Below are positions 39,121 through 64,000 of a stretch of DNA of 64,000 nucleotides, piece after piece. This DNA is from Deltaproteobacteria bacterium. Lineage in GTDB: Bacteria; Myxococcota_A; Polyangia; Fen-1088. Position 1 is the stretch's first letter; each line of letters begins with the position of its first letter. A program made the translations under genes and the position numbers. The notes below the pieces were generated by a model. That model did not search any database. It was not told where the DNA came from and worked only from the letters and a program-made list of their open reading frames with translations. The DNA lies in assembly GCA_033763315.1 (NCBI GenBank), contig JANRKS010000032.1, positions 448,001 through 512,000 of the forward strand, given 5' to 3'.

Positions 39121-39260
39121 GGGCGCGCATCATAGGTCACAGGCGCCCAGGCGGGGAGGTTTCGTTGCGCGAAAGTAGCGGCACTTTAGGTGTTGGACCG
39201 CTGCTGTTACGGAGCTTAGCGAAAGCGGTTCAAAGATGACGATGGCCGGCAATCTAGGCG

Positions 39261-39276
39261 TGGCCTGCTCTATGCA
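39261..39276 (+). promoter_or_regulatory. sigma54 -24/-12 promoter motif
   Basis: TGGCCTGCTCTATGCA (GG-N10-GC), upstream of the 39313 ORF and csbD. Confidence 0.6.
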
Positions 39277-39312
39277 TAAGTCACGAGGTGAACCCAATAA
39301 AGCAGGTGCAGG

Positions 39313-39831
39313 ATGGACCTTTTTACGGAATCAGCTCGTGGTGGCAACAACATAACAGGCTTGCGTAACTTCGCGTGCGTGGGTTTGTGCGTGGCCGCCT
39401 TAGGCGCTTGTGGCACAAGTGGAGCCGAACATAAACGCAGCGAATATGGGGCCACGATGTCATCCACCTGCCCGGCACCCATCAAGCGCAGCGTGGTGCG
39501 CGTTGTGTACGGACCACGGCAAGCCACGGCTGTGTGGATGTTGCCCGCAGGCATGCTTGGTTCAAAGTCGCCTCACGATCTTGCGGTGCTGCAACAACAC
39601 GTTGCTGACCTTGCGGAGCGCATGACGGCGGAGTCGGTCGGAACTGCCGATCGCATCGTTCGCTACGAACCCAGCGAATCCGGTGCCGCGATCACTGTTG
39701 AGGATTCGAACGTGGATCGTCTGGATACCACACGCGAAGAATTTGATCGTTACGCAGCTTTATCGAACCAAGGCGAATGCGCTACCACGGCCCTGCTCAA
39801 CGTTGCGGCCTCTGTAGCCTCCGCTGATTAA
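39313..39831 (+). CDS. Hypothetical lipoprotein
   Basis: Lipobox ALGA-C near N-terminus; start uncertain. Confidence 0.65.
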   Translation: MDLFTESARGGNNITGLRNFACVGLCVAALGACGTSGAEHKRSEYGATMSSTCPAPIKRSVVRVVYGPRQATAVWMLPAGMLGSKSPHDLAVLQQHVADLAERMTAESVGTADRIVRYEPSESGAAITVEDSNVDRLDTTREEFDRYAALSNQGECATTALLNVAASVASAD

Positions 39832-39873
39832 CAACCCACGGCCCATAAGCGGCCCCACAGAAAGGTAAACGTC

Positions 39874-40071
39874 ATGAATTGGGACCATGTAGAAGGCAAA
39901 TGGAACGAGTTCAAAGGCCAATTGCGCTCCAAGTGGGCGAAGCTGACCGATGACGATTGGAACCAGATCGGTGGCAAGAAGGACCAACTTTTGGGTCGCT
40001 TGCAACAGCGCTATGGGTATCAGCGTGACGAAGCTGAACGCGAAGTTGATTCATTCATAAAGTCCATCTGA
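39874..40071 (+). CDS. csbD: CsbD/YjbJ-family stress protein
   Basis: MNWDHVEGKWNEFKGQLRSKWAKLTDDD...GRLQQRYG...EAEREVD; AAAGG RBS. Confidence 0.93.
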   Translation: MNWDHVEGKWNEFKGQLRSKWAKLTDDDWNQIGGKKDQLLGRLQQRYGYQRDEAEREVDSFIKSI

Positions 40072-40092
40072 ACAATCAATAACTCAACATTT

Positions 40093-40130
40093 AAACGCCG
40101 GAGGGGATCATGCCTCTTCGGCGTTTTCCA
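40093..40130 (+). terminator. Intrinsic terminator after csbD
   Basis: AAACGCCGGAGGGG...CCTCTTCGGCGTTT stem (with G-U pairs) followed by a T-rich tract. Confidence 0.65.
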
Positions 40131-40274
40131 TTTTCTATTTCTCTCCCGGCATAGTCGCTCCTTTTCGTAGTGATCAAGGAACGCTTGCGCGGGCATGTTT
40201 CCAATATGTCCCGATCACGCGCCTCATACCCGAACAAACCCCAGATTTGTAACGATATCGCTGCGAGTTTCCTT

Positions 40275-40290
40275 CGGCACACTGCTTGCT
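40275..40290 (+). promoter_or_regulatory. sigma54 -24/-12 promoter motif
   Basis: CGGCACACTGCTTGCT, close to consensus YTGGCACGNNNNTTGCW. Confidence 0.75.
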
Positions 40291-40364
40291 GAGGGGGAAG
40301 ACAACAAAACGAGGAGCACAAGGGGTGTTCCGCAATATCGAAAGATAGGGACAGGAGATAAATT

Positions 40365-41084
40365 ATGAAGACCGCAATTTCGACTTTGGGTATGGGCGTT
40401 GTGATGTCGATTCTGGGTTTGCAAACCACGGCACAAGCACAGGTCGTTGTGCCCGATCCAGATCCAAACGGCACTCAGGTGGGAGCGGGTGCACCTTCTG
40501 AGGCATTGCCTCCTCCTCGGTCAGACAACGATGCACAGCCACCGGTGGCTGCACCTATGGCACCTGGCGTGGGTGTAACCAAGCAAGCTGGTGTTGGTGG
40601 GACGCAAGCGTACGGTCGTGCAGGCGTGCTGGAGTTGGGTGGCTCGGGTGGCTTCTCTATCTCTGATCGTTACAACCGCTTCGAATTGGCTCCTTCGGTT
40701 GGTTTGTTCATTGCTGACAACCTGGAGATCTCCGTGATTGGCGCTTACAGCCGGGTTCACGTGGACGGCCAAGGCACCTCGCCCGGTGCCACGGCCTCTG
40801 AGTTCAAGCTCCTTTTGGAGCCAAGCTACCACTTGCCATTCTCTGAGGTGCTCTTCGGGTTTTTCGGCTTGGGCGCGGGTGTGAAATACCTCTCGGGTCA
40901 AGACACTGGTTTCGCCTTGGCTCCTCGCTTGGGCTTAAACATCCTGATCGGTCGCTCAGGCATCCTCTCGCCTTCACTGAACGTCGATTACTCGACTGTT
41001 GACGTGATCAACACGCCAAGCGGAACTGTGGTGGGTGTTCAGACCTCATACGGGATGAACATTGGCTACACCGTGATGTGGTAA
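40365..41084 (+). CDS. Small outer-membrane beta-barrel protein
   Basis: Signal peptide (AQA), Pro-rich linker, ~8 amphipathic strands, C-terminal aromatic (GYTVMW); AGGAGA RBS. Confidence 0.75.
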   Translation: MKTAISTLGMGVVMSILGLQTTAQAQVVVPDPDPNGTQVGAGAPSEALPPPRSDNDAQPPVAAPMAPGVGVTKQAGVGGTQAYGRAGVLELGGSGGFSISDRYNRFELAPSVGLFIADNLEISVIGAYSRVHVDGQGTSPGATASEFKLLLEPSYHLPFSEVLFGFFGLGAGVKYLSGQDTGFALAPRLGLNILIGRSGILSPSLNVDYSTVDVINTPSGTVVGVQTSYGMNIGYTVMW

Positions 41085-41106
41085 CGCGAATCGAAGGGCT
41101 TAAACG

Positions 41107-41748
41107 ATGCGCTTACTTTTAATTTCGACTGTTCTGTGTGTGGGGTTCGGTTTAGGAGCATGCAAACGGCCAGCGGACAAAGATGTTGTTGAGCCAGGCA
41201 TGCAAGGACAACAGAACAGTATGGGCGGCATGGTGGGTGTTGTGGCAGGTGCGGCGGGTATGGGTGGGGCTGCGGCAGCAGCGGCAGGTGGCGAACCTCT
41301 GCATGCCGATGAGGTTCCGCAAGCCGGATCGAATGCGGCTGCCGTTCAAGGGGCGGGTGGGGCTGCGGTGGCAGCCTCAGCAGATGACGCAACACCAATG
41401 ACAGCAGAGGAAAGTGCGACTTACCACAAGCTGTGCCACTTCGTTCTCAAACGGATGGCGGCGTGTGCAAAGGATCCCGGCTTTCTCAAATACCAGGGCC
41501 GCTGGACAAGCAAGGGCGCACCAAAAGCGGGTGGTCCCAGTTTCGAGAAACGAATTATTTCTTGGGGCGCTGAGGGCGAGCGCGCCAACAGCTGTAAGAG
41601 TTGGTCGACACGTCCGGGCACGCGCGCTCACTTCGTAACGAAGGGCAAGCTTTCAAGCTTGAATGAAGACTCGAAGCTGTCGTGCGAAATGTTCGGGCAA
41701 GAGTTAGACGACGACGGTTGGTTCCCGGCGACGTTGAGCGACACATAG
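41107..41748 (+). CDS. Hypothetical lipoprotein
   Basis: Lipobox GLGA-C, Gly/Ala-rich linker, C-terminal domain with 4 Cys. Confidence 0.7.
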   Translation: MRLLLISTVLCVGFGLGACKRPADKDVVEPGMQGQQNSMGGMVGVVAGAAGMGGAAAAAAGGEPLHADEVPQAGSNAAAVQGAGGAAVAASADDATPMTAEESATYHKLCHFVLKRMAACAKDPGFLKYQGRWTSKGAPKAGGPSFEKRIISWGAEGERANSCKSWSTRPGTRAHFVTKGKLSSLNEDSKLSCEMFGQELDDDGWFPATLSDT

Positions 41749-41798
41749 CCCATTCACTAAACTAACCACAGCTTAGACGTCTGCCTTCGGCATAGACG

Positions 41799-41835
41799 CG
41801 CAGAGAGGACGCCTCACAACGGCGTCCTCTCTGCG
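41799..41835. repeat. 15-bp perfect inverted repeat (hairpin/terminator-like)
   Basis: CGCAGAGAGGACGCC-tcacaac-GGCGTCCTCTCTGCG. Confidence 0.85.
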
Positions 41836-41925
41836 TATCGGACTCGTTGTTTCGACGATGTGGCGCTTGTGTGGAAACGGTGTCGAACAAAGCCCGTGAC
41901 ACGACGTGGAGTGGGAGAGTTCATG

Positions 41926-41941
41926 TGGCATGGGAGTTGCT
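41926..41941 (+). promoter_or_regulatory. sigma54 -24/-12 promoter motif
   Basis: TGGCATGGGAGTTGCT, 26 nt before the BON gene ATG. Confidence 0.78.
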
Positions 41942-41966
41942 GGAAATGTCAGGCGGAGGAAACACG

Positions 41967-42449
41967 ATGAATCCAGTGAAACTTGGACTGTTGGTTGGGA
42001 TCTTGGGAATGGGTTCTGTGGGCAACGTAGCGTTGGCTGCAGACAAAGCAGCGCAGAAGGATCGGATCGAGGATCGCGCTGACCAGAAAAAGGATCAGAT
42101 TGATCGCAACGCTGACCGGCAAAAGGCGAAGGTGGATGAGGACGCCGAGCGGGCCAAGGATCGCGTTGACGGCAAGGATCGTGATGGCAAGGTCACCGCA
42201 AACGAAAAGACGAGCGTGGGTGAGGAGGTGACCGACGCATGGATCACCACCAAGGTGAAAAGCAGCTTCATTGGAGAAGACGCTCTCAAGGGATCCGACA
42301 TCAGTGTGGACACGGAGAACAAGGGTGTGGTGGTGCTCACGGGCACGGCTCCCACGGTGGGTGCGCGCTTGCGTGCGGCTTCACTCGCGGCGTCCGTTAA
42401 GGGCGTGCGCAGCGTTCGCAATGACATCCGCATTGCGCCCGCACGTTAA
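41967..42449 (+). CDS. BON-domain (OsmY-like) periplasmic protein
   Basis: GGAGGA RBS; signal peptide; charged repeat linker; DAWITTKVKS...ISVDT..GVVVLTG...VKGVRSVRNDI. Confidence 0.9.
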   Translation: MNPVKLGLLVGILGMGSVGNVALAADKAAQKDRIEDRADQKKDQIDRNADRQKAKVDEDAERAKDRVDGKDRDGKVTANEKTSVGEEVTDAWITTKVKSSFIGEDALKGSDISVDTENKGVVVLTGTAPTVGARLRAASLAASVKGVRSVRNDIRIAPAR

Positions 42450-42470
42450 TCGCTGAATCAACAAACAAGT

Positions 42471-42497
42471 CTCGGCCCTGCGGGGCCGAGGCCTTTT
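42471..42497 (+). terminator. Hairpin/terminator after BON gene
   Basis: CTCGGCCC-tgcg-GGGCCGAG followed by gccTTTT. Confidence 0.55.
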
Positions 42498-42524
42498 GGC
42501 TCGTTCATCAGGAAAGATCCGGCT

Positions 42525-43436
42525 ATGTGGATTGAGAACGTCCATTCGCACCACCAAGAGTCACCCACAGTGGCTCGGAAGCAGACGTTTCGTGCACTCG
42601 GCAAGATGTTGTGGGACGCCGCGAAGATGTGGCTCGACAAGAAATCGCCTCGCTTAGGCGCCTCGTTGTCGTACTACGCCGTGTTTTCAATTGCTCCGAC
42701 GCTGCTGGTGGCCCTTTCAATCGCGGGTCTGGTGCTGGGAAGCGACGCCGCTCAAGGGCGCGTGCTTGATGAATTGAAGACCGTGCTTGGCCCCGACGCC
42801 GCGCAACTGGTTCAAACGATGCTCGCCAAATCGTCCGAGCAAAAATCAGGCATCGTTGGCTCGATCGTGGGGATCGTCACTTTGATTCTAGGCGCCACTG
42901 CCGTGATGGTGGAACTGCAGGCGGCGCTCGACATCCTGTGGGATACGGCGCCGCGGACCTCGGGAATCAAAGCGTTGATCAAAGAGCGAATCCTATCGCT
43001 GGCGCTCGTATTGACTGTGGGCTTTTTGTTGGTGGTGTCGTTGTTGGTCAGTGCGGCCATGGTGGCGGTCTCGAATAGCCTTGGTCGGTACATGCCTGGC
43101 ATGGTGGTGCTGGGAACCATTCTGAACAACGTGGTGTCGTTCGGCGTGCTCACCGTGTTCTTTGCGTTGGTGTTTAAATATCTGCCAAACGCGAAGGTGG
43201 CTTGGAAGGACGTCTGGATGGGCGGTCTGCTCACTTCGGCGCTGTTCCAGTTAGGTCGTGCGCTCATTGCGCTTTACATTGGGCGTGCGGGCGTATCTTC
43301 GACGTTCGGTGCCGCCGGTTCGTTGGCTGTGTTGTTGGTTTGGGTTTACTACTCGTCGCAGATTGTTCTTATGGGGGCCGCTGTGACCCGGCTGTGGGCG
43401 GAGCGATTCGGTGGCGGCGCGCCGCGTGGCACGTAA
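42525..43436 (+). CDS. YihY/BrkB-family inner-membrane protein
   Basis: RLGASLSYYAVFSIAP, FKYLPNAKVAWKDV, FGAAGSLAVLLVWVYYSSQIVLMGA. Confidence 0.92.
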   Translation: MWIENVHSHHQESPTVARKQTFRALGKMLWDAAKMWLDKKSPRLGASLSYYAVFSIAPTLLVALSIAGLVLGSDAAQGRVLDELKTVLGPDAAQLVQTMLAKSSEQKSGIVGSIVGIVTLILGATAVMVELQAALDILWDTAPRTSGIKALIKERILSLALVLTVGFLLVVSLLVSAAMVAVSNSLGRYMPGMVVLGTILNNVVSFGVLTVFFALVFKYLPNAKVAWKDVWMGGLLTSALFQLGRALIALYIGRAGVSSTFGAAGSLAVLLVWVYYSSQIVLMGAAVTRLWAERFGGGAPRGT

Positions 43437-43509
43437 CGCCATCGCACCCCCGGTTACGTCTTTGTGACCGAAATCGTCGTAAATCCTGGGTGCGGAAACA
43501 GGCGTTTTG

Positions 43510-43525
43510 CGGCGTGGGATTTGCA
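43510..43525 (+). promoter_or_regulatory. sigma54 -24/-12 promoter motif
   Basis: CGGCGTGGGATTTGCA (GG-N10-GC), 21 nt before ATG 43546 of the kinase operon. Confidence 0.6.
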
Positions 43526-43545
43526 AGTCGTTGCGAAATACCCTT

Positions 43546-45276
43546 ATGCCTTCTCCAATTCCGGCGGCCACCCAAAGCCCAACTCCGGCCCCAGCGGCCA
43601 AGGCGGCTGTTTTACTGGTGGACGATAACCCGCACAACTTGGCTGCATTCGAGGCGTCGCTCGATGGCATAGACGCGGAGCTCATCAAATCAACCTCCGG
43701 TGAGCATGCGCTTAGGCAACTGTTGTCGCGCAACGACTTTGCGGTGGTGGTGCTCGACGTTCAGATGCCCATGATGGACGGGTTCGAGACGGCGCGCCTG
43801 ATGCGCTCGCGGCAGCGCAACCAGCAAACGCCCATCATCTTCGTGACCGCATACTCCCGCGACGACGTGCAGGTTCTTGAGGCCTATAAAATGGGCGCCG
43901 TCGACTTCTTGTTTAAGCCCATCACGCCCGAGGTTTTGCGCGCGAAAACGTCGGTGTTTATCGATCTGCACAAACGCTCGGAACAAGTGCGGATGCAGTC
44001 TGAGCTGCTGCGGGAGCACGAACGCCGCGAACATGAGCGGCTGTTGGAAGAAGAGAAGCGCGCTTGGGACGAATCAGCCATGCGCGGACGCCTTGAAGAA
44101 CTGGCGCGATCCGATCAACGCAAGGATGAGTTTCTTGCGATGTTGGGACACGAGTTGCGTACGCCTTTGGCGCCCATCGTGACGGCGCTTCATCTGCTCA
44201 AAGAACGGTTGGGCAACGCTGAGGACGTGGGCTCGCCCGAAGGGAAGATCTTGGCGACCGTGGAACGGCAGATGTCGCATCTGCGTCGTTTGGTCGACGA
44301 TCTGCTTGATATTTCGCGGATCAATTCAGGAAAGATCGAACTTAACCTCGTTGAGGTGTGTCTTGCGGCCCTGGTGAACGAGGTCGTGCAGGGGCTCATG
44401 CCCGCCGCGCAAGAAAGACAACACACACTTGAAGTTGAAATGCCGAGTGAACCTTTGGTGGTCAAAGGTGACGCCGTTCGGCTGACTCAGATCGCGACGA
44501 ACCTGCTGCAGAACGCGTTCCGTTATACAGAGCCGGGCGGACGCATCCGGGTGGGCGTGGTCCGACGCGGCAACGCGGTTGAACTTTACGTCACGGACAA
44601 TGGCACAGGCATTGAGCCGCAATTGCTTTCGGGGGTGTTCGACATGTTCGTGCAGCGGCGCTCGGGCGCCAATGGCGGACTTGGCGTGGGATTGACGCTG
44701 GTGCGGCGTTTGGTGGAGTTACACAGCGGCACGGTGCTGGCATCGAGTGAGGGGCTTGGCAAAGGCAGCCAGTTCACAGTGACGCTGCCCCTGCTTTACG
44801 CCGGCATCCGCGCCAAGGAAAACTGCGAGCACGCTGAAGCGCACGGCGTGGCGCAAGAGCCTCCCCAACTGACGAGCAGCGCTGACTTGCCTGTCGTCGC
44901 CGCCGCGGGAGACTCGGGTACGGTGGCGGTGATCGATGACAACGAAGACATTCGCGAAACCTTGCGCGAATTGCTGGAAGCTTGGAACTACAGCGTGCGC
45001 TGTGCAGGCGATGGCATTGAAGGCGTGGCTTTGATCCTTGAACACAAGCCCGTTGTGTCGTTCGTCGACGTTGGCATGCCACGCATGGATGGCTTCGCCT
45101 TGGCGAGGGAAATTCGCGGACGCTTAGGCGCCGCACCCACGCTGGTGGCGATGACAGGTTTTGGCCGGCCAAGCGATTTCGCTGAGGCCGCCGCCTCAGG
45201 TTTCAACGGCTATTTGGTCAAGCCCATCGACGTCAAAGATCTGCGCAAATTTCTGCCGGCCCCACCCAAAACATGA
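43546..45276 (+). CDS. Hybrid histidine kinase REC-HisKA-HATPase-REC, no sensor domain
   Basis: [16 protein letters not shown]; H-box LGHELRTPL; NLLQNA, DNGTGI, GLGVGL; second REC VIDDN..VDVGMP. Confidence 0.92.
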
Positions 45277-48200
45277 CAACCACGTCCACCCCCAAAACCG
45301 CCTCCACAAAAGTACGTTCGGCTTCCAACGGCAACGGCGCCTCGCACGCCTCGCCCGTCTTGGACAAAGCATCAGACAAGGCATTCGAGAAAGCCATTCT
45401 CGCTGGTTTGCGGCGTTTGCAGCGCGGCGAATTCGACGCGCGCTTGCCACTTGACCTTGTGGGTACGCAGGGACAAATCGCCGAATCATTCAACGAGGTG
45501 GCCAGCCTTTTGTCTGCACAGGTGGCAGATATGCGCGCGCTGCGCTCCGAGGTGGCTGAGGAAGGGCGCCTGCACAAACGCATGCAGCGGGGCAGCGCCA
45601 AAGGCGGATGGTTGCAGCTGGCAAGCGACACCAACGCCCTGTTGGAGTCGTTGACAGAGCATACGGCCGACGTCATGCGCGTGGTGACGGCGCTTGGCAA
45701 GGGCGATTTCTCGCAACAAGTCGATCCCGACGGGCGCGACGGACCGCTCAAAGGCGATTTCCTGCGGCACGCCCGCGTGCTCAATGGCTTCACTTTGCAA
45801 CTGGTGAATCTCACCGAGGAGATCACAAAAGCGGCTGACTCGATTGCTGTGGAAGGCAAGCTTGGCACGCGTGTGCATGCACGCGGGGTGGCGGGTGCTT
45901 GGAAGGAATTGACAGCAGGCTTCAACCGCGTGGCCAGCAACCTTTCGGAACAGGTGCGCGAGATCGCTGAAGTCACAACTTTGGTGGCGCAAGGCGATCT
46001 GTCTAAGACAGTGAGCGTTGAAGCCAAGGGCGAGATGCTGGCGCTCAAAAAGACAATCAACACGATGGTGGCGCAGCTGGAAGCTTTTGCGTCCGAGGTG
46101 TCGCGTGTGGCGCGCGAGGTGGGCACCGAAGGCATTCTCGGCGGGCAAGCCCGCGTGCGGGGCGTTTCAGGTATTTGGCAAGAGTTGACCGAGAACGTCA
46201 ATTCGATGGCGCACAACCTGACGTCGCAGGTGCGCAACATCTCTGAAGTTTCAAGCGCCATTGCGCGCGGCGATCTGTCGCGAAAGATCTCGGTTGAAGT
46301 CAAAGGCGAGCTTCTTGACCTCAAGAACACCATCAACACAACGGTGGATCGCTTGGGCGCCTTCGCCGCGGAAGTGACGCGTGTGGCACGCGAGGTGGGC
46401 ACCGAAGGCGTGCTGGGCGGGCAGGCCACAGTTAACGGCGTCTCGGGCGTGTGGCGCGAGCTCACCGAGAGCGTCAATGGCATGGCCAACAACCTGACCA
46501 TGCAGGTGCGCAACATCGCCGAGGTGGTGACGGCGATCGCGCAAGGCGATCTGCGCCACAAGATCACCGTGGAAGCGCGTGGTGAAATCCAAACCTTGAA
46601 GGCAACGATCAACACGACGGTGGATAAGCTCAACCGTTTCGCGGCGCAGGTGTCGCGCGTGGCTCGATTGGTGGGCACCGAAGGCACGCTCGGTGTGCAA
46701 GCCGAAGTGTCGGAAGTCTCGGGCGTGTGGCGTGAACTCACCGACAACGTGAATCAAATGGGCCGCAACCTGACGAACCAGGTGCGCGACATTGCCACGG
46801 TCACAACGGCTGTGGCCAACGGCGATCTGACCAAGAAGATCACAGTGGAGGTTCGTGGTGAGTTGCTGCAGCTGAAAAACACCATCAACACGATGGTGGA
46901 TCAACTGAGCACGTTCGCTGATCAGGTTACGCGGTTGGCCACCGAAGTGGGCACCGAAGGCAAGCTGGGCGGGCAAGCCGACGTGCGCGGCGCTGCCGGC
47001 ACGTGGCGCCACCTGACCGATGCCGTCAACTCGATGGCGAACAATCTGACCCTGCAGGTGCGAAATATCTCGCAAGCCGCCACCGCGATCGCGGCCGGCG
47101 ATCTCACGCGCAAGATTGAGGTCGAAGCGCGTGGCGAAGTGTTGGAAGTGAAGAACACCTTCAATGCGATGCTTGACCAACTGGGTGCGTTCGCGGCGGA
47201 AGTGAGCCGTGTGGCACGCGAGGTGGGGATGGACGGCCGCCTGGGCGCGCAAGCTTCAGTGGCTGGCGTGCGCGGCATCTGGAAGGAGCTCACCGACAAC
47301 GTCAACCTGTTGGCCAGCAACCTCACCAGCCAGGTGCGTGACATCGCGCAGGTGGCCTCGGCCATCGCCCAAGGCGATTTAAGCCGCAAAGTGACCGTGG
47401 AAGTGCGGGGCGAAATTTTTGAACTCAAGAGCACGATCAACACCATGGTGGATCAGCTGAGCAGCTTCGCGGCCGAAGTGACGCGCGTGTCAAGAGACGT
47501 GGGCGTCGAAGGGGTCTTGGGGGGGCAGGCCGCGGTACGGGGCGTCTCCGGCGTGTGGCGTGAGCTCACGGACAACGTGAACTTAATGGCCAGCAACCTA
47601 ACCAATCAGGTGCGCGACATCGCTGAAGTCACGACCGCTGTGGCGAACGGTGATCTGACCCGCAAGATCACGGTGGAGGTGCGCGGCGAATTGGCCGAGC
47701 TGAAGAAGACCATCAACACGATGGTGGATCAGCTCAATGCCTTCGGCGCCGAAGTGAGCCGTGTGGCGCGCGAGGTCGGCACCGAAGGCGTCCTGGGTGG
47801 GCAAGCCAATGTGCCGGGCATTTCCGGGGTCTGGAAAGAGCTCACAGACAACGTGAACTTGATGGCCCGCAACCTGACGGCGCAGGTGGGCGGTATCGCG
47901 CGCGTCGTGACCGCGGTGGCACGCGGGGATCTTACCCAGAAGCTGGCGCTTGAGGCGCGCGGCGAGATTGCGTCTTTGGTCGATACGATCAACGGCATGA
48001 TTGATACGCTTTCGGTGTTTGCACAACAGGTCACCGGCGTGGCCAGGGACGTGGGTGTCGAAGGGCGCTTGGGGGGGCAAGCGGATGTGCCGGGCGCCGC
48101 AGGCCTGTGGCGCGATCTCACCAACAACGTGAACGAACTCGCCGGCAACCTCACGCGACAGGTGCGCGCCATTGGTGACGTGGCTACGGCCGTGACGAAG

Positions 48201-55359: not shown

Positions 55360-55384
55360 GGTTTCATCCTCGCCTTTTTGGATG

Positions 55385-55400
55385 TGCACAAACCGAGCCA
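55385..55400 (-). promoter_or_regulatory. sigma54 -24/-12 promoter motif
   Basis: Minus strand TGGCTCGGTTTGTGCA, 26 nt before ATG 55359. Confidence 0.65.
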
Positions 55401-55534
55401 GCGGGTGGTGTAACGTTTTAGTGACGGTGTCGGCTTGGATGATCTGTTTCAAACCCGCGCCTTGAAAGCTAGTATTTCGGCTTACGGCGCTTGCAGGGCA
55501 TGCTGTAAGTCCAACGCCAAATGCCGACTTCCCT

Positions 55535-57503: not shown

Positions 57504-57507
57504 TTGC

Positions 57508-58476
57508 CTATTGCGCTTGTTGCATCGACAATTGATCGCGGTGAGGCACGATCACTTCAACGCGGCGGTTGTTTGCGCGCCCTTCAGGTGAGCTGTTTGC
57601 CGCCACGGGTTCGGATTCGCCCTTGCCCACCGCCACCACGGCCGCTGGTGGCACACCATTTTCGATCAGGTAAACACGCACCGATTCGGCGCGTGCCTGC
57701 GAAAGTTGTTGATTAAACGAGTCACTGCCGCGGTCGTCCGTGTGTCCTTGGATCACCACGGGGTCCCCCGACTTATAGTTCCGCAAGGCTGTGGCCAAAG
57801 GCTGCATCTTTTCTTTGGCTGTGCCAAGCAAGACGCTCTTGCCCGACTCAAACAACACGCTGCCCGCGAAAGTGATGACCAGTCGTTCGCGATCTTGCTT
57901 AACGGCTGCCATCGCTTGCAAGTCTTTGAGCGCCGCGTCCGCGCGCGCTTCGGCTTCTTGCCGCGCCTGCGTCTCTGCAGCCAATGCCTGTTCCTTCTGA
58001 GTCAGCTGTTGGTTCGCTTGGTTAAGCCGCGCCTGATCCTGCTGCGCCGCCGCCTGCGTTGTTTCAAGCTTGCCGGTCGTGCGAACGAGATCCAACTCCT
58101 TCTTGTTGTTCTCCTCTTTCAAATCGGCCGATCGACGTTCAAGCGTGGTCGTGTAGGCCTCCTGGTTCTTTTCGCGTTCAAGGCGTGCCTGCTCGGCTTG
58201 CGCGTGGGCAACCGCTGTCAGCGTCTTGCGGTGTGCGAGGTAGGCATAGTGTGTCTCGTCTCCAGAGCGGGGATCGTCCTTGTGTGCGGCCTCGGCCTTT
58301 GCCAGCAGCTTCTGGGCTTCGTAGAGGTCTTTCGGGGCGTATGTCGACGCGCGTGCCTGGTCGGCGGACTGCATCGCGGTTCGCGCCTGCACGAGTTGGC
58401 TTGACGGCTGGTTGGAGCCGCAACCCAGCATCAACGTGGTCACAGAAATGAAACCAAAACCTAATAGCGTTTTCAT
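57508..58476 (-). CDS. Lipoprotein with DUF4398, coiled coil and OmpA-C peptidoglycan-binding domain
   Basis: Lipobox MLG-C; VLFESGKS.L, IQGHTDDRG....NQQLSQARAESV, GKGESEPVA.N...GRANNRRVEV. Confidence 0.9.
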   Translation of the reverse strand: MKTLLGFGFISVTTLMLGCGSNQPSSQLVQARTAMQSADQARASTYAPKDLYEAQKLLAKAEAAHKDDPRSGDETHYAYLAHRKTLTAVAHAQAEQARLEREKNQEAYTTTLERRSADLKEENNKKELDLVRTTGKLETTQAAAQQDQARLNQANQQLTQKEQALAAETQARQEAEARADAALKDLQAMAAVKQDRERLVITFAGSVLFESGKSVLLGTAKEKMQPLATALRNYKSGDPVVIQGHTDDRGSDSFNQQLSQARAESVRVYLIENGVPPAAVVAVGKGESEPVAANSSPEGRANNRRVEVIVPHRDQLSMQQAQ

Positions 58477-58494
58477 TGGGGTACCCTCCACCGG

Positions 58495-58851
58495 CTAGAA
58501 ACGGCCGTCTTGCAGTTGCTGCACGCGCGCGGCCGCTTGCTGCGCACTTTCCTTTTCGCCTTCAGCTTTCGCCACGGCGATGGCCACTTCAGCGTCGGCT
58601 TTCGCACGCTCAAGCACGCGCGCGGCCTTTTCCTGTTCGCCGTCTTTCATCAGCTTTTCGGCGCTAGCAATCTGTTGCTTGGCCAGATCCAGGTACAGGG
58701 CCGATTGCGGCACACCCTCTGCGCCCACTTCTTCGGCCGCGCGCACCGCGGCTTTGGTGTCGGTTTCTTTCTCCACGGGCCGCGAGGCGCCACAGGCAAG
58801 GATGCCGAGCGGCAAACCCAGCATCAACATTCCAGGGATCGTTCTTCTCAT
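58495..58851 (-). CDS. DUF4398-family lipoprotein
   Basis: Lipobox ILA-C; AVRAAEEVGA...A..YL.LAK.Q...RAKADAEVA; typical partner of the OmpA gene; GGAGG RBS. Confidence 0.85.
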   Translation of the reverse strand: MRRTIPGMLMLGLPLGILACGASRPVEKETDTKAAVRAAEEVGAEGVPQSALYLDLAKQQIASAEKLMKDGEQEKAARVLERAKADAEVAIAVAKAEGEKESAQQAAARVQQLQDGRF

Positions 58852-58884
58852 GTCGTCCTCCAATGGTTTCGACATAAGAAAAGC

Positions 58885-58900
58885 AGCACGAATCGTGCCA
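58885..58900 (-). promoter_or_regulatory. sigma54 -24/-12 promoter motif
   Basis: Minus strand TGGCACGATTCGTGCT, 34 nt before ATG 58851. Confidence 0.75.
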
Positions 58901-58913
58901 CCAAGCGACGGCC

Positions 58914-60359
58914 CTAAGCGGGAAGGTGTGTGCGGGGTAATGTGATCTTAAAGCGCGTGCCGTCTTGTGGGGTGGATGTCAATTCCATTTTGCCGCCGTG
59001 CAAACGGATGATCTCATCCGCGATGAACAACCCCAGGCCCAGGCCCTGGCGCGACGATGAAGCACCCCGTCGAAACGGCTTAAGCAGATCCGGCATCACG
59101 TCTTCGGGGATGGCTCCGCCGTTGCTAACCTCGATCACCACTTGATCGTTCGTTGTGCCGTTGATGGAAACAACAACCGGGGCGGCCGCGTCTCCGTGAA
59201 CCAAAGCGTTTGACAGCAGATTGGAAAACACCTGCCCCAGTCGATCGCGATCCCATGTGCCTACCATGGCGCCATCACGCGAAAAAGTGAGCGTGCGCTG
59301 GCTGTGCGCCGCACGTAACTCCTCAACAAGGTCGGCGATCAGTTCCGCCAGATCAAAGGCCGACGGCCGTACCTCCAATCCCACGCCTAGCCGCACCCGG
59401 GTAAAGTCGAGCAACTGTTCGATCATGCGTGTCATGCGGTCAGCGCTGTTGGCGATGCGTGTGCCTATCTTCTGCACACGATCCGCGGGCGCGTTGGCGG
59501 GCGTCATGGAAAGCATCTGCGCACCCATTTTGATTGCACTGAGTGGATTGCGCAGATCGTGGCCCAAGATGCCGATGAAAACCTGGGCAAAGTGTGCAAC
59601 GCGTTCAGCTTCTATGCGTGCGCCGCGTTCACGTTCAAAAGCGCTTTGCACGCTTTGAATGTTGGTGGCGGTGCCATACCATCGCGAAACCTCTCCCTTG
59701 GTATCGCGTATGCCGACGGCGCGGCTTACGTGCCATTCATACGAGCCATCCGCGCGCAGCAGGCGATGCTTCATTTCATAGACGGAATCTCCGTCGCCCG
59801 GGGTGTTGGCCTGCAGCCAGGCTGCCGATGTTGCGGCGCGATCTTCGGAATGCACAAGAGGCCGCCAGTCCAAAACTTGGCCGTCCGGGTTTGCGTACTC
59901 GCGTCTGCGGTCGTTATAATAGTCAACGTGGCCATCCCCAGTGGCGCTCCAAACCAACTGAGGCATCGTGTTGGCGAGTTCTTTTAGATGTTCTTCGGCC
60001 TGTTTGCGTTCACTGATATCTAAAACCGTGAACCCCACGCATGGCTGTGCGCCGGGAATGGGAAAAACGGAAATATGCCAACACGCAAATTGAAAGCGTC
60101 CCTGCGGCGTAGGCACAGACACCTCTTCGTGAACCACGGTGTTGGTCGCATGAACTTGCTTGATAAGTTCAATCGTCTTCGCGCCGAAGGTGGCTGCCAC
60201 CTCGGCCACGGGCCGTCCCTCGTGTTGGTTCACGGGAACGCCGTCCATCACGGCCAGCGCGGCGTTGACACGCGTAAAGCAAAGATTGGCGTCGACAATC
60301 GCCATCCCGAGGTGCGTGTGATCGAAGAACGCATCTAACAAATGTCGTTCGCTCGTCAA
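58914..60359 (-). CDS. PAS-PAS histidine kinase (cytoplasmic)
   Basis: Two PAS/PAC domains (RVNAALA; MPQLVW..VHSEDR..ADGSYEW); H-box LGHDLRNPL; GLGLGL; TTG start after GGAGG. Confidence 0.9.
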   Translation of the reverse strand: MTSERHLLDAFFDHTHLGMAIVDANLCFTRVNAALAVMDGVPVNQHEGRPVAEVAATFGAKTIELIKQVHATNTVVHEEVSVPTPQGRFQFACWHISVFPIPGAQPCVGFTVLDISERKQAEEHLKELANTMPQLVWSATGDGHVDYYNDRRREYANPDGQVLDWRPLVHSEDRAATSAAWLQANTPGDGDSVYEMKHRLLRADGSYEWHVSRAVGIRDTKGEVSRWYGTATNIQSVQSAFERERGARIEAERVAHFAQVFIGILGHDLRNPLSAIKMGAQMLSMTPANAPADRVQKIGTRIANSADRMTRMIEQLLDFTRVRLGVGLEVRPSAFDLAELIADLVEELRAAHSQRTLTFSRDGAMVGTWDRDRLGQVFSNLLSNALVHGDAAAPVVVSINGTTNDQVVIEVSNGGAIPEDVMPDLLKPFRRGASSSRQGLGLGLFIADEIIRLHGGKMELTSTPQDGTRFKITLPRTHLPA

Positions 60360-60395
60360 AGCTTCGCCTCCAAGTTGCGCGGATTCGCCATTTGT

Positions 60396-60411
60396 CGCAG
60401 AGCTTGTGCCC
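60396..60411 (-). promoter_or_regulatory. Weaker sigma54 -24/-12 motif
   Basis: Minus strand GGGCACAAGCTCTGCG (GG-N10-GC), 37 nt before the kinase start. Confidence 0.45.
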
Positions 60412-60523
60412 TATCGGTCAAGGGGTCAAGCGCCAGCAGAGTGGACAACATGTGTCGCCGGTTACTCGCCTGTAACCGATGGGGAATATTCGCTTTCAAA
60501 GCGTCTGGCTTTGCATCCACTGT

Positions 60524-60539
60524 TGGCATCGCTCTTGAA
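60524..60539 (+). promoter_or_regulatory. sigma54-like promoter motif (-12 variant TTGAA)
   Basis: (T)TGGCATCGCTCTTGAA, 25 nt before ATG 60564. Confidence 0.65.
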
Positions 60540-60563
60540 TGCAACCGCTGCGGAGGCCCGAAG

Positions 60564-61118
60564 ATGAAAAAGGCGAATCGAGAATCCACAGAGGCGGTTG
60601 ACCCGTCTTTGTACAACGCGAAGACCGTGAAAACGAACATCGTTCCCGTGATGACGGAACAGGTGATGGCAAGCGTGAAGGACATAATGACACCCGAGGT
60701 GGTGGCGGTGGAAGGAAGCCTCCCTGTTGCTTTCGCGGCACAGCTCATGCGCGACAACGACGTGGGCATTTTGCCAGTTGTGAATGAAGAAGGTGCCGTG
60801 GTGGGGTGTGTGACGGATCGCGATCTTGCCATCCGCGCTTTGACTCCGGATGTCTCCAGCCCGCAAGCGTTGGTGGTTCGGGACGTCATGTCCGAGAACG
60901 CTTGGTGCGCCAGCAGCGACGACAGCGTGGAAGATGTCTTGAATGCGATGGGTAAGTACCGCGTGCGACGGATACCTGTTGTGGATGAGGGCAAAAAGCT
61001 CATTGGCATTATCTCGATCGGGGATGCGGCGGTGCGGGCCGATAGGGACGAAGCGTTGCAGAGGGTGCTTGAGAAGATTTCGCGACACGAAGGGTTCTGG
61101 CAAACCGCGTGGCGGTAG
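60564..61118 (+). CDS. CBS-domain pair protein
   Basis: VKDIMT, MRDNDVGILPVV...GCVTDRDL.IR, VRDVMS, VRRIPVVD...LIGIISIGD; GGAGG RBS. Confidence 0.9.
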   Translation: MKKANRESTEAVDPSLYNAKTVKTNIVPVMTEQVMASVKDIMTPEVVAVEGSLPVAFAAQLMRDNDVGILPVVNEEGAVVGCVTDRDLAIRALTPDVSSPQALVVRDVMSENAWCASSDDSVEDVLNAMGKYRVRRIPVVDEGKKLIGIISIGDAAVRADRDEALQRVLEKISRHEGFWQTAWR

Positions 61119-61179
61119 CAGGCGTGAAGCGGTGGCGGACGGCCCATATTCGCCGCCCGCCACCGAATGGTGGCCCGCC

Positions 61180-63408
61180 TCACCAGCGGAGCAGGTCGGC
61201 GTTGATTCGTCGCCACACCTGAACCGAACGCCCCGGCAGGTCAAGTTTATCTCCCGGTGCCAGCGTGATGGAAGGCGCGCATTGCCCATCTGCCGTATCG
61301 AAGTCTTTCACGAAAAGTCCGCCGCCGAGCGCCGCGGGTAAAACGAACGGCAGCGGATCCCAGTGCGCGTTGAACAGCAGATAAAAGTCATCGTCCACCA
61401 CCTTGAACCCACGTTCGTCGGTTGATTGAATGCCACGCCCATTCAAAAATACGCCCAGGCTCTTTGCGAAGGACGCGTTCCAGTCGTCCTCGGACATCAA
61501 AGAGCCATCGGCTCTGAACCAGCCGATGTCTTGCAGGCCTGTGCCCCGGATGTTCTTGCCCTCAAACCAACGTCGGCGGGTGAACACGGGATGTTGCTGC
61601 CGATAAGCGATCAGCGCCCGTGTGAAGACCAGCAGGTCTTTGTCGAGCTTTGACCATTGGATCCAAGCCGTCTCGTTGTCTTGGCAGTATACGTTGTTGT
61701 TGCCTCCTTGCGTTCTGCCGAGCTCGTCGCCATGAAGCAACATCGGTACGCCCTGCGAGAGCATGAGCGTTACCAAGAAATTGCGCCTTTGCTGCTGGCG
61801 GAGCTGTTTGACGGCAGCATCGTCAGTGGGACCCTCCACTCCGCAGTTCCACGATCGGTTGTTGCTTTCACCGTCGCGGTTGCCTTCGCCGTTGGCGTCG
61901 TTGTGCTTTTCGTTGTACGAAACCAAATCATTGAGCGTGAAGCCGTCGTGCGCAGTGATGAAGTTGATCGAAGCGTGAGGACGTCGTCCGTTGCTCAGAT
62001 AAAGGTGTGAACTGCCCGTGAAACAACCCGCAAAGTGAGGCAGCGTTTGTTCGTTGCCCTGCCAGAACGAACGCATGCAATCGCGGTAATCGCCATTCCA
62101 CTCGCTCCACACCGGCGGAAACTTGCCGACTTGATAGCCGCCATCACCCACGTCCCATGGCTCCGCGATGAGCTTTGTTTGGCTGATTACAGGATCTTGC
62201 TGAATGAGATGAAAGAAGGTTGAAAGGCGGTCCACCGCGTGAAGCTCTCGGGCCAGCACCGAGGCCAGATCAAAGCGGAACCCATCAACGTGCATCTCAA
62301 GCACCCAATAGCGCAAAGAATCCATGATCATTTGCATCACGTGGGGATGCTTCATGTTCAAGCTATTGCCCGTCCCGGTGTAGTCCATATAGAATTCGGG
62401 CGCTTCGGGCGAAAGCTTGTAATAGGCGGCGTTGTCGATGCCACGCCAGCACAGCGTGGGCCCTTTGTGGTTGCCCTCGCAGGTGTGGTTGTAGACCACG
62501 TCAAGAATGACTTCGATACCCGCTTGGTGCAGAGCCTTCACCATGCTTTTGAATTCTTGCACCTGCTGGCCGCGGGTTCCCGCGCTGCAATACTCTTGAT
62601 GGGGCGCAAAGTAGGAGAGCGTGTTGTACCCCCAATAGTTGCGGAGCCCCTGGTCCAAGAGGTGGCCGTCGTGCAAGAACTCATGCACAGGCATCAGTTC
62701 CACCGCCGTAATGCCCAACCGCATGAGATAATCAATGGATTCCGGATGAGCGACGCCAGCGTAGGTGCCCCGCAGAGCCTCGGGTATGCGAGGGTTCAGC
62801 GCCGTGAAACCTTTGACGTGCATCTCGTAGATCACGGTCTCGTTCATCGGTGTGCGCGCGGCTCGATCGTTGGCCCAATCAAAGTACGGGTTGATCACAA
62901 CCGAGCGCGGCGCGAACGGCGCACTGTCACGTCCCTCCGGTCCGACGGACTGCAACGCTTCGTTGGGGATCACCAAGCCGTCGATGGCCTTGCTGTACGG
63001 ATCCAACAACAGCTTGCTGCTGTCGCAACGTTGACCTTGCACGGGGTTCCACGGGCCGTGAACCCGATAGCCGTATCGCTGGCCTGGTCCCACACGAGGC
63101 AAATACGCGTGCCAACAGTTCGCCGTCATTTCGGGCAGGCGAATGCGGGTTTCCTTGTTGTCTTCATCAAATAGACATAGATCCACCGCTTCGGCTATTT
63201 CCGAGAACAACGAGAAGTTTGTTCCGCTACCGTCGAAGGTGGCGCCCAGCGGAAATGGCTTTCCTGGCCACACTTCACTTGCGGTCTGAGGGCGCAACCG
63301 CGGGGCACGCGCCTCCGTCGGGGCTTTCGAAGTCTTGGGCTGAGCCGAAACCTCGGGTGGGCTCTCTTCGTGAATCTTCTCTTTAATTGGTTTTGTGGGT
63401 GAGTTCAT
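61180..63408 (-). CDS. glgX: Glycogen debranching enzyme (isoamylase, GH13)
   Basis: PGKPFPLGATFDG, YEMHVKG, NYWGYN, DVVYNH, DGFRFDLA, IAEPWD, NFITAHDGFTL, GGNNNVYCQDN; start uncertain. Confidence 0.95.
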   Translation of the reverse strand: MNSPTKPIKEKIHEESPPEVSAQPKTSKAPTEARAPRLRPQTASEVWPGKPFPLGATFDGSGTNFSLFSEIAEAVDLCLFDEDNKETRIRLPEMTANCWHAYLPRVGPGQRYGYRVHGPWNPVQGQRCDSSKLLLDPYSKAIDGLVIPNEALQSVGPEGRDSAPFAPRSVVINPYFDWANDRAARTPMNETVIYEMHVKGFTALNPRIPEALRGTYAGVAHPESIDYLMRLGITAVELMPVHEFLHDGHLLDQGLRNYWGYNTLSYFAPHQEYCSAGTRGQQVQEFKSMVKALHQAGIEVILDVVYNHTCEGNHKGPTLCWRGIDNAAYYKLSPEAPEFYMDYTGTGNSLNMKHPHVMQMIMDSLRYWVLEMHVDGFRFDLASVLARELHAVDRLSTFFHLIQQDPVISQTKLIAEPWDVGDGGYQVGKFPPVWSEWNGDYRDCMRSFWQGNEQTLPHFAGCFTGSSHLYLSNGRRPHASINFITAHDGFTLNDLVSYNEKHNDANGEGNRDGESNNRSWNCGVEGPTDDAAVKQLRQQQRRNFLVTLMLSQGVPMLLHGDELGRTQGGNNNVYCQDNETAWIQWSKLDKDLLVFTRALIAYRQQHPVFTRRRWFEGKNIRGTGLQDIGWFRADGSLMSEDDWNASFAKSLGVFLNGRGIQSTDERGFKVVDDDFYLLFNAHWDPLPFVLPAALGGGLFVKDFDTADGQCAPSITLAPGDKLDLPGRSVQVWRRINADLLRW

Positions 63409-63423
63409 CTCGCGCGTCACAGA

Positions 63424-63439
63424 AGCAAAACGAGTACCA
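63424..63439 (-). promoter_or_regulatory. sigma54 -24/-12 promoter motif
   Basis: Minus strand (T)TGGTACTCGTTTTGCT upstream of glgX. Confidence 0.68.
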
Positions 63440-63588
63440 AACGTGGGGTGCACTTGGGAACTCACCAGCGCCACGCGCAGGGCAAAGATCGTAACCCGCG
63501 TTTCTGTGTCCGCCCGCTGCGATCGCCACAACGTCTCAGCGTCGCGCTGGCGCCAACTCCGACGGCCCGTTTGGTCATCGCAGTTTTC

Positions 63589-63604
63589 CGGCACGACTAT
63601 TGAA
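63589..63604 (+). promoter_or_regulatory. sigma54-like promoter motif (-12 variant TTGAA)
   Basis: CGGCACGACTATTGAA, 48 nt before ATG 63652. Confidence 0.65.
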
Positions 63605-63651
63605 TAGAGACGCTGTGAATTGTTGCGGAATACTTTGCAAGGAGAACACGT

Positions 63652-63915
63652 ATGAAACTGGAAGATCTGAAATCACTTTCTAAAGACGACATCCTCGGCG
63701 CGCTGGGCCTCGAGACCAAGCGCTCCACCTCGGGTGTTGTCGCGAGTAGCCTTGCCGTGTTCGGTATGGGCTTGGTGGTTGGCGCTGCCGCTGCGTTGAT
63801 GATGGCACCCAAGACGGGCCGAGAATTGCGCGACGACGTCAGCTCTCGCTTGCGGTCGTTCACCGGTAAGGAAGGCGCCAAGCCCAATGATGGTGAAGTC
63901 TCGGCGCTAACGTAA
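63652..63915 (+). CDS. YtxH-domain general-stress protein
   Basis: FGMGLVVGAAAALMMAPKTGRELRDD matches YtxH; AAGGAG RBS. Confidence 0.88.
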   Translation: MKLEDLKSLSKDDILGALGLETKRSTSGVVASSLAVFGMGLVVGAAAALMMAPKTGRELRDDVSSRLRSFTGKEGAKPNDGEVSALT

Positions 63916-63954
63916 GCGTTTCCTTTAACTTAATACATCGTAGGAGAGAACAAC

Positions 63955-64000
63955 ATGAAGCGGATGATTCTAGGGTTGTGCGGGCTGTTGGGTGTAGCTG
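63955..64000 (+). CDS. Start of an exported protein (truncated by window end)
   Basis: AGGAGA RBS, MKRMILGLCGLLGVA signal-peptide-like start. Confidence 0.6.
   Translation, partial: MKRMILGLCGLLGVA

Follow-up and report, generated by a model that had tools for sequence, protein, structure and literature searches.

Putative sigma-54 promoters in a 25-kb cluster of stress-protection and sensor-kinase genes from a Myxococcota-like genome

A 64-kb stretch of contig JANRKS010000032.1 (655,588 bases; GenBank assembly GCA_033763315.1), here called the window, carries a 25-kb chromosomal cluster of stress-protection and sensor-kinase genes in a Myxococcota-like genome. Genes were placed from a listing of open reading frames (ORFs) combined with Pfam and NCBIfam scans, which covered 62 ORFs across the window. 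Strong terminator-like hairpins lie after the genes for a CsbD protein (40093 to 40126) and a BON-domain protein (42469 to 42492), and on the basis of these hairpins and the gene spacing the cluster divides into ∼14 inferred transcription units. A candidate −24/−12 motif of the sigma-54 promoter class heads 12 of the 14 units and is convincing in 11. A preliminary description of this DNA had listed 12 such motifs, and all 12 strings were found, once each, at the coordinates it gave; for minus-strand motifs (five sites by our count), its coordinate is the high end of the element. The orientation it described also stood, as all sites face a gene, and the distance from motif end to start codon, put there at 16 to 75 nucleotides (nt), is 15 to 74 nt with the start codons chosen here. 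Its term island was not borne out: GC content is 0.55 to 0.62 in the cluster, against 0.58 to 0.65 elsewhere in the window, and no boundary formed by a mobile element or a repeat was seen. Its account of the gene content largely held: four histidine kinases, CsbD, BON, YtxH, and GlgX were confirmed, and its YflT is a lead only. The cluster products comprise protective proteins of envelope and cytoplasm and, for signalling, the four histidine kinases, CheR, CheB, and one receiver protein.

Motif scores are given in bits from a rough sigma-54 matrix, which approximates the frequencies of a published promoter compilation and served only as a scoring device. On the plus strand, motif 1 (TGGCCTGCTCTATGCA; 39261 to 39276, 12.2 bits), also found de novo, lies 36 nt before a gene for a lipoprotein-like protein of 172 amino acids (39313 to 39831, +), followed by the CsbD gene (39874 to 40071, +; Pfam E value, 4e−17, above cut-off). 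Atlas look-alikes of the 172-amino-acid protein were uninformative (best score, 0.82). The CsbD protein resembles the YjbJ-type model PRK10428, scoring 81 bits against a cut-off of 113. Motif 2 (CGGCACACTGCTTGCT; 40275 to 40290, +, 13.7 bits), likewise found de novo, is 74 nt upstream of a gene for a secreted protein with a signal peptide (40365 to 41084, +), which looks like an outer-membrane barrel by eye; a lipoprotein-like gene follows (41107 to 41748, +), and neither product matched a Pfam family. The top-scoring site of the window is motif 3 (TGGCATGGGAGTTGCT; 41926 to 41941, +, 18.1 bits), 25 nt before the BON gene (41967 to 42449, +; Pfam E value, 5e−19, above cut-off), whose product resembles OsmY and DolP at 42 to 51 bits, far under the cut-offs of those families. 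The next gene encodes a YihY/BrkB-family membrane protein (42525 to 43436, +; Pfam E value, 2e−46) and has no convincing sigma-54 motif; in the de novo model its best upstream site, TGACATCCGCATTGCG, lacks the GG. Motif 4 (CGGCGTGGGATTTGCA; 43510 to 43525, +, 10.6 bits) stands 20 nt before a kinase operon. In order, this operon encodes a REC-kinase-REC hybrid kinase (43546 to 45276, +), a 1,919-amino-acid poly-HAMP/GAF hybrid kinase (45273 to 51032, +), CheR (51051 to 51881, +), and a receiver-less CheB with the methylesterase domain only (51883 to 52482, +), all assigned by Pfam.

Motif 5 (TGGCACGAGACTTGTA; 52466 to 52481, +, 13.7 bits), found de novo and with GT at −12, overlaps the CheB stop codon and precedes by 23 nt a gene for a 106-amino-acid protein (52505 to 52825, +) for which no family was found. 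This protein, behind one of the stronger motifs, is highly acidic and of low complexity, and may be a hydrophilin-like protectant. Motif 6 (TGGCACATCGCTTGAA; 52912 to 52927, +, 12.7 bits, GA at −12) is also 23 nt from its gene, which encodes a DUF2383/PA2169-type four-helix bundle (52951 to 53403, +). On the minus strand, motif 7 (TGGCTCGGTTTGTGCA; 55385 to 55400, 12.5 bits) lies 25 nt before a Gly-zipper/DUF1269-like gene (54865 to 55359, −) and then a class II fumarase/aspartase-family gene (53461 to 54861, −; Pfam and NCBIfam). The former product has sub-threshold Pfam matches, and its Atlas look-alikes are DUF1269 proteins (0.90 to 0.91), with a YflT cluster at rank 15 (0.89). An ETR1_N-type histidine kinase (55535 to 56755, +; Pfam) and a REC-domain regulator (56772 to 57503, +; Pfam), the C-terminal part of which matches PilZ only at an E value of 0.097, form a pair (55535 to 57503) without a sigma-54 motif, the best upstream site scoring 7.9 in the de novo model.

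Motif 8 (TGGCACGATTCGTGCT; 58885 to 58900, −, 15.7 bits) is 33 nt from the probable start (58851) of a probable DUF4398 lipoprotein gene (58495 to 58851 or 58875, −), which is followed by a DUF4398-OmpA gene (57508 to 58491, −). A GGAGG box 6 nt upstream of the ATG at 58851 and the signal peptide of the lipoprotein indicate that this ATG is the true start, which gives a leader of normal length. Directly after the PAS histidine kinase gene (58914 to 60359, −), the DNA at motif 8 can form a hairpin of nine pairs followed by TTTCTT (58882 to 58902, −), and this hairpin could be a terminator, a promoter, or both. Upstream of the PAS kinase gene lies motif 9 (GGGCACAAGCTCTGCG; 60396 to 60411, −, 7.8 bits), a weak site that fell under all scan thresholds, was not picked by the de novo model, and is unsupported as a promoter. 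Motif 10 (TGGCATCGCTCTTGAA; 60524 to 60539, +, 11.8 bits, GA at −12) precedes by 24 nt a gene for a CBS-pair protein (60564 to 61118, +; Pfam CBS E value, 7e−29). Motif 11 (TGGTACTCGTTTTGCT; 63424 to 63439, −, 13.9 bits) is 15 nt before glgX (61180 to 63408, −), identified as glycogen debranching enzyme by an equivalog score of 971.9 bits against a cut-off of 640.9. The same 15-nt interval is found in the window (63409 to 63439, −) and in two relatives, and it predicts a nearly leaderless glgX mRNA. Motif 12 (CGGCACGACTATTGAA; 63589 to 63604, +, 9.9 bits, GA at −12) lies 47 nt before the YtxH gene (63652 to 63915, +; Pfam E value, 7.5e−10, above cut-off). Among the general-stress hallmark families, CsbD, BON, and YtxH thus stand above Pfam cut-offs and Gly-zipper and DUF1269 below. 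The consensus over the convincing units is (T/C)GGCA(C/T)-N5-(T)TG(C/A)(A/T). With transcription assumed to start 11 nt after the motif, most predicted leaders are 13 to 26 nt long, just enough for a ribosome-binding site.

The placement and quality of these motifs set them apart from background. Raw counts are uninformative in DNA of 60% GC: a loose pattern allowing up to two mismatches was not enriched window-wide (119 matches against 105.5 expected; 9 of 100 shuffles reached 119), and ∼20 intragenic sites score 11 bits or more. Ranked over all 128,000 strand positions, 10 of the best 14 matrix matches sit 10 to 75 nt upstream of a cluster gene on the same strand, and none of the best 45 falls in non-coding DNA (2,565 nt) of the first 39 kb. 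At a threshold of 9.5 bits, the 120-nt zones upstream of the 22 cluster genes contained 11 matches with the canonical GG-N10-GC spacing, against 0, 1, 0, 0, 1, and 2 with spacers of N7, N8, N9, N11, N12, and N13, respectively, and none on the opposite strand. Dinucleotide-preserving shuffling of the same zones (1,000 shuffles) gave 0.58 matches on average and 4 at most, and no shuffle reached 11. At this threshold, no N10 match was present for the 24 genes outside the cluster, in the first 39 kb, in agreement with the preliminary description, which had seen no comparable motif in the intergenic regions it inspected there. Expectation-maximisation without a prior, run on the 14 unit-leading upstream regions, converged on TGGCACGnnnnTTGCA and recovered 11 of the 12 sites, all except 60411(−); with 14 upstream regions from the first 39 kb as input, it yielded nothing comparable. 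No dispersed repeat or mobile element carries the motifs in the window, where the only large repeat family is the HAMP array of the kinase gene. The E. coli sigma-70 consensus, which may miss myxobacterial promoters, had no match in 39100 to 45400 and four in 51000 to 64000, where 3.9 were expected. Being specific in spacing and strand and found de novo, the motifs behave as a genuine −24/−12 promoter class, and the statistics, with the conservation described below, show 11 units to be headed by such a predicted promoter.

Conservation was assessed with the DUF2383 gene. Alignment of 16 of 120 listed proteins led to 80 loci (1.14 Mb in total, given here by L numbers), which exclude the window's own genome; their DUF2383 matches are 48 to 62% identical. 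Sixty-nine loci are labelled Myxococcota and the other 11 as Deltaproteobacteria, Proteobacteria, uncultured proteobacterium, or bacterium; the closest named relatives among the matches listed are Myxococcota metagenome-assembled genomes. Genes in the loci were called with a loose finder, a strict finder based on GC at third codon positions having missed most genes in some of them. A site of canonical spacing scoring at least 10 bits lies within 150 nt before the predicted start of 29 of the 80 DUF2383 orthologues, while six other spacings gave 0 to 5 in the same 80 regions. Across the 32 orthologue sites of 8 bits or more, the GG and TG columns are invariant (32 of 32) and the spacer is free. 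The motif is conserved while its flanks diverge. Some orthologues without a motif sit in same-strand gene rows that open with one, such as DUF4398, DUF4398-OmpA, YtxH, DUF948, DUF4142, and DUF2383 in L073, or DUF2383 and then BON in L053.

Beyond DUF2383, gene-proximal sites of 12 bits or more across the 80 loci numbered 42 at N10, against 3 to 10 at each other spacing. The genes behind the N10 sites included those for CsbD (L017 and L063), YtxH (L053), BON and DUF4398 (both L073), and GlgX-like proteins (L032, L036, and L042), as well as GH15, DJ-1/PfpI, and DUF1508 proteins and many small proteins without a family. The spacing to the gene can also be preserved. The YtxH orthologue of L053 (64% identity) carries CGGCATTCGGATTGCA 47 nt upstream of its start, as in the window, and TGGCAC-N5-GTGAA stands 15 nt before the GlgX-like genes of L036 (about 1388 to 1418, −) and L042 (about 3118 to 3148, −). 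In L073, the DUF4398 orthologue has CGGCACACCTGATGCA at the position matching motif 8, which favors the promoter reading of that motif. Gene order of the cluster is not conserved between the window and the loci, and apart from DUF2383 each cluster protein found matches in only 1 to 10 loci by tblastn.

The best analogue of the cluster is L017, with six motifs, one of them upstream of a small ORF and then a CBS gene. Its signalling genes encode STAS, REC-PP2C, a PAS hybrid kinase, and two Ser/Thr kinases, and its other genes DnaJ, DJ-1, DUF2383, DUF4398, DUF4398-OmpA, CsbD, an iron permease, and a CBS pair. In its middle are an NtrC-type activator gene with a motif of its own (REC, Sigma54_activat at an E value of 1e−73, and HTH_8; GAFTDA loop), a kinase, and a receiver. 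Partner-switching parts (STAS and REC-PP2C) were thus observed beside an NtrC-type activator, kinase, and receiver in this locus (3774 to 5446, −; 13748 to 16249, +).

A second element was found before DUF2383 in other relatives. The pattern GTTGCC-N17-CTAnnTT lies 21 to 32 nt before the DUF2383 start in L001, L004, L006, L007, L008, L013, L015, L019, L040, L046, L056, and L064, none of which has the sigma-54 motif there; the reverse strand gave 0 matches and shuffles 0.1. It is nearly confined to DUF2383 (12 of 13 gene-proximal matches in the loci) and absent from the window. This element looks like a sigma-70-family promoter, and with two promoter types before DUF2383 the same gene appears to be wired differently across lineages. 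Yet another upstream pattern before DUF2383 is shared by L047, L049, L054, and L060.

The −12 element varies among the motifs. Its dinucleotide is GC in eight of the 12 window sites, GA in three, and GT in one, the variants (A, once T; TTGAA or TGAA) being 52466 to 52481, 52912 to 52927, 60524 to 60539, and 63589 to 63604. Variant sites also occur in L002, L011, L018, L032, L033, L036, L042, L048, and L080, and the TTGAA form of motif 6 is shared by L002, L018, L032, L036, and L042. Among gene-proximal canonical sites (YGGCAY-N5-NTGNW) of the window and the 80 loci, the base at the −12 C position was C in 37, A in 14, G in two, and T in two, whereas two spacing controls had A there only once and twice; ∼10 of the 14 A sites are independent, as three of the loci have almost the same sequence at these promoters. 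GA at −12 thus seems to be tolerated rather than to reflect noise, and it would form a promoter subclass of the phylum, which bears on how strictly sigma-54 reads the −12 element.

Sigma-54 promoters need an activator, and the window and loci were searched for one. No Sigma54_activat domain was detected in the 62 ORFs scanned, as the preliminary description had held, and tblastn with the L017 activator against the window found receiver-domain similarity only. The window is 64 kb of a 655,588-base contig, and absence there says little about the genome. A search for GAFTGA-type loops returned seven candidate ORFs from the loci, two of which are not activators, and one from the window, which is a leucyl-tRNA synthetase gene and no activator either. 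The search missed the L017 activator, whose loop reads GAFTDA. By tblastn, activator genes were present in seven of the 80 loci, plus one frameshifted copy. This last is a sigma-54 activator gene of L073 (8871 to 10791, −) that appears split over two frames beside five sigma-54-type motifs, which points to a pseudogene or to an error of assembly. For M. xanthus, 53 activators are reported (PMC3162934), and the seven loci are near the genomic density expected from that number, which indicates no enrichment. The locus activators are only 42 to 46% identical across lineages and belong to different subfamilies, so that no orthologous stress activator can be named.

The upstream regions of the 12 motifs were also compared for shared sites. 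The most widespread 7-mer was found in five of the 12 regions, a number inflated by two divergent pairs, and the most widespread inverted-repeat half-site in three, and both were rejected as a shared enhancer. Half-sites of the M. xanthus activator Nla28, sought 20 to 250 nt upstream of the motifs, numbered 70 against 79 expected at two mismatches, and the exact matches were one palindromic site counted on both strands. The words GTAAC/GTTAC occur 11 times in these upstream zones, where 1.5 would be expected from length alone, and stand upstream of seven of the 12 motifs. They include a perfect palindrome, CGGTTAC-N6-GTAACCG, at ∼60459 to 60478 between the divergent PAS-kinase and CBS genes (promoters 9 and 10); it is a candidate regulator site, at present a weak lead. 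Elsewhere in the window, a protein of 3,475 amino acids consisting almost entirely of TPR repeats (6378 to 16805, +) is encoded beside FHA/TonB_C and TPR proteins and RNase Y, in a gene row that resembles an operon.

Taken together, the reading of the motifs as sigma-54 promoters is well supported, and they probably function as such. That the units they head form one coordinated stress regulon is a more tentative suggestion, which we regard as possible. The preliminary description had proposed that a general stress response is run here through RpoN; its sigma-54 promoters are supported by the statistics and conservation above, while the single RpoN programme stays a proposal. On balance, this is probably a stress cluster whose sigma-54 promoters are fired by one or more outside activators, with the co-clustered kinases signalling to them. 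In such a scheme, sigma-54 RNA polymerase would wait on the cluster promoters as a closed complex, and the promoters would fire only after activation of at least one AAA+ enhancer-binding protein encoded outside the window. The likely activator would be an NtrC-like REC-AAA+-HTH protein, as embedded in the L017 cluster. The co-clustered kinases would probably supply the activating signal, and the sigma-54-type promoter of the kinase operon (two hybrid kinases, CheR, and CheB) could provide feedback. The output would be coordinated protection against osmotic stress, desiccation, or stationary phase, or dormancy.

Several observations weigh against this scheme. The −12 C is missing from four of the 12 sites (GA in three, GT in one), and motif 8 also reads as a terminator hairpin. 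For some units the predicted leaders are very short, at ∼5 nt before glgX and ∼10 nt before the kinase operon. Neither rpoN nor an activator gene is present in the 64-kb window, and activator genes are not enriched near DUF2383, as the count of seven in 80 loci indicates. K-mer and inverted-repeat searches revealed no shared upstream activator site in the 12 upstream regions, where Nla28 half-sites at one mismatch numbered six against 8.4 expected. The GTAAC/GTTAC words are only weakly over-represented (seven in 2,036 nt of cluster non-coding DNA against three in 2,565 nt elsewhere), which makes several activators rather than one quite possible. At least 12 of the 80 DUF2383 orthologues carry a different promoter-like motif.

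The most credible alternative accepts the sigma-54-dependent promoters and denies the single regulon, with different enhancer-binding proteins serving different units; the programme may then be part of the myxobacterial cascades of starvation, development, or spore maturation and not of a general stress response of the RpoS, SigB, or EcfG type. It would accommodate the failure to find a common site in the 12 upstream regions, the metabolic rather than classic stress character of GlgX and fumarase, and the different subfamilies of the activators in related loci (42 to 46% identity). Activators are numerous in Myxococcota, as the 53 of M. xanthus illustrate (PMC3162934). They are known to work in cascades of starvation and development, and Nla28 has well over 100 likely targets, several of which are needed for stress-resistant spores (PMC9765219). 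However, the CsbD, BON, YtxH, DUF2383, Gly-zipper, and DUF4398-OmpA families recur behind the motif in the unrelated loci L017, L053, L063, and L073, and this co-occurrence suggests co-regulation. Eleven such promoters within 25 kb are also hard to explain without a shared logic, and enhancer sites are short and degenerate enough for a common one to be easily missed by the searches. We consider this alternative unlikely as a replacement for the scheme of a stress cluster served by outside activators and co-clustered kinases.

Far less credible is that the 16-nt element is the site of another regulator, or a structural element, with transcription arising from unrecognised sigma-70-family promoters. 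The four sites without a −12 C, the hairpin with a T-rich tail at motif 8, and orthologue sites that read TCGCAC or TTGCAC in place of TGGCAC could be cited for it, as could a sigma-70 scan of the E. coli type that may overlook myxobacterial promoters. Yet the motif found de novo is the universal sigma-54 consensus and agrees with that of M. xanthus, TGGCACG-N4-TTGC(T/A) (PMC9765219). Exact spacing is required both in the window and in the loci, the orientation is fixed, and the distance to the ribosome-binding sites is short and fixed, which leaves no room for a −35/−10 promoter downstream of the element; in addition, conservation does not extend into the flanks, and the element is not part of a dispersed repeat. 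Finally, the idea that the motifs are chance matches in GC-rich DNA, to which the unenriched loose pattern and the intragenic high scorers lend some color, has a negligible likelihood beside the failure of all 1,000 shuffles to reach 11 matches, the 0 to 2 matches at other spacings, and the 29 motif-bearing orthologue regions of 80; for the set as a whole chance is refuted, and it is possible for single weak sites, 60411(−) above all.

A bolder reading, which at present seems rather doubtful, is that in part of the Myxococcota the general stress response came to rest on sigma-54 instead of a sigma-70-family factor. An NtrC-type activator would then be charged by a methylation-tuned poly-HAMP kinase, in the manner of an RsbK/RsbM input, and would act on dispersed zero-background promoters before CsbD, BON, YtxH, DUF2383, DUF4398-OmpA, GlgX, and similar genes. 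The relaxed −12 element (TTGAA) would be a distinct, lineage-typical promoter subclass, and sister lineages would have moved the same genes to a sigma-70-family promoter, amounting to promoter-class turnover in one regulon. If true, the promoters would stay silent until an ATPase fires, with signals integrated at activators and kinases instead of anti-sigma factors, and sigma-54 would join RpoS, SigB, and EcfG as one more independent solution. Some of the numerous orphan activators and kinases of myxobacteria would thereby gain a function, and the promoter motif would allow regulon prediction in many uncultured Myxococcota genomes.

General stress responses are in textbook cases controlled by the sigma-70-family factors RpoS, SigB, and EcfG, and to our knowledge model myxobacteria lack RpoS. 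CsbD, YtxH, and YflT belong to the SigB regulon, and OsmY and YjbJ are members of the RpoS regulon in E. coli. With sigma-54, each promoter must be activated at the expense of ATP, which keeps basal expression close to zero. The cluster shares the families CsbD and YtxH with the Bacillus SigB regulon (by Pfam), and YflT/DUF1269 as a lead. However, SigB is a sigma-70-family factor released by partner switching, whereas the promoters here are of the sigma-54 type and would need an AAA+ activator, and domain scans of the window found no CHASE3, RsbY-type phosphatase, sigma, or anti-sigma gene. With the E. coli RpoS and alphaproteobacterial EcfG regulons, it shares overlapping families and the clustering of small protective proteins under an alternative sigma factor; those are sigma-70-family factors controlled by proteolysis or anti-sigma factors.

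The possible kinase input recalls RsbK-RsbM of B. cereus, in which RsbK, a CHASE3-HAMP-GAF-S-helix-kinase-REC hybrid kinase, is methylated by RsbM (PMC4574943). The poly-HAMP kinase of the cluster contains nine tandem HAMP units of 276 nt (45931 to 48284), and Pfam resolved HAMP/HAMP_2 (nine copies), GAF_2, HisKA, HATPase_c, and REC (three copies). A HAMP-GAF-kinase-REC hybrid kinase with an adjacent CheR-type methyltransferase is thus present, in the arrangement HAMPx9-GAF-HisKA-HATPase-RECx3 beside CheR and CheB, a likeness of domain order only. CHASE3 and SpoIIE/PP2C (RsbY-type) domains were absent from the window by Pfam, whereas L017 carries STAS and REC-PP2C (REC-SpoIIE) genes like those of a SigB input.

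Outside the phylum, a further parallel is DVU3305 of D. vulgaris, a sigma-54 activator of the response-regulator type whose targets are annotated "General stress response, transmembrane transport" (PMC4641369). It differs in governing two small operons in another phylum (a former deltaproteobacterium), and neither "CsbD" nor "BON" occurs in the main text of that paper. A 2025 comparison of sigma-54 regulons across phyla mentioned Myxococcia and Polyangia in connection with the cell wall, secretion, and other functions (PMC12316311); its main text and eight supplementary files contain neither CsbD nor general stress, nor the COG numbers assumed for CsbD, OsmY, and YtxH. A full-text search of one library found no description of sigma-54 promoters before CsbD, BON, YtxH, or DUF2383 genes, and "CsbD" was unmentioned in the Myxococcus sigma-54 literature found by full-text search. 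The promoter class and the reliance of the phylum on sigma-54 are known already, while no description of the regulon content, the GA subclass, or the possible kinase input was found in the literature searched.

The nearest known systems are the sigma-54/activator regulons of M. xanthus, which belong to the same phylum and use the same promoter class, with the consensus cited above (PMC9765219), and in which NtrC-like activators are paired with histidine kinases. Nla28 governs stress-associated genes (PMC9765219), and PexR is an enhancer-binding protein that controls the peroxide-stress genes ahpC and katB (PMC12754779). The cluster differs from the Nla28 regulon in that the tandem CT(C/G)CG(C/G)AG half-sites (PMC9765219) are not enriched upstream of its promoters, and in that CsbD, BON, YtxH, DUF2383, DUF4398-OmpA, and GlgX are not named as targets in the available part of that study. 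None of the three promoters tabulated in the same part has A or T in place of the −12 C, against three to four here. As Myxococcus sigma-54 activators are already tied to starvation, peroxide, and stress genes, the cluster described here would extend a known theme rather than introduce a new principle.

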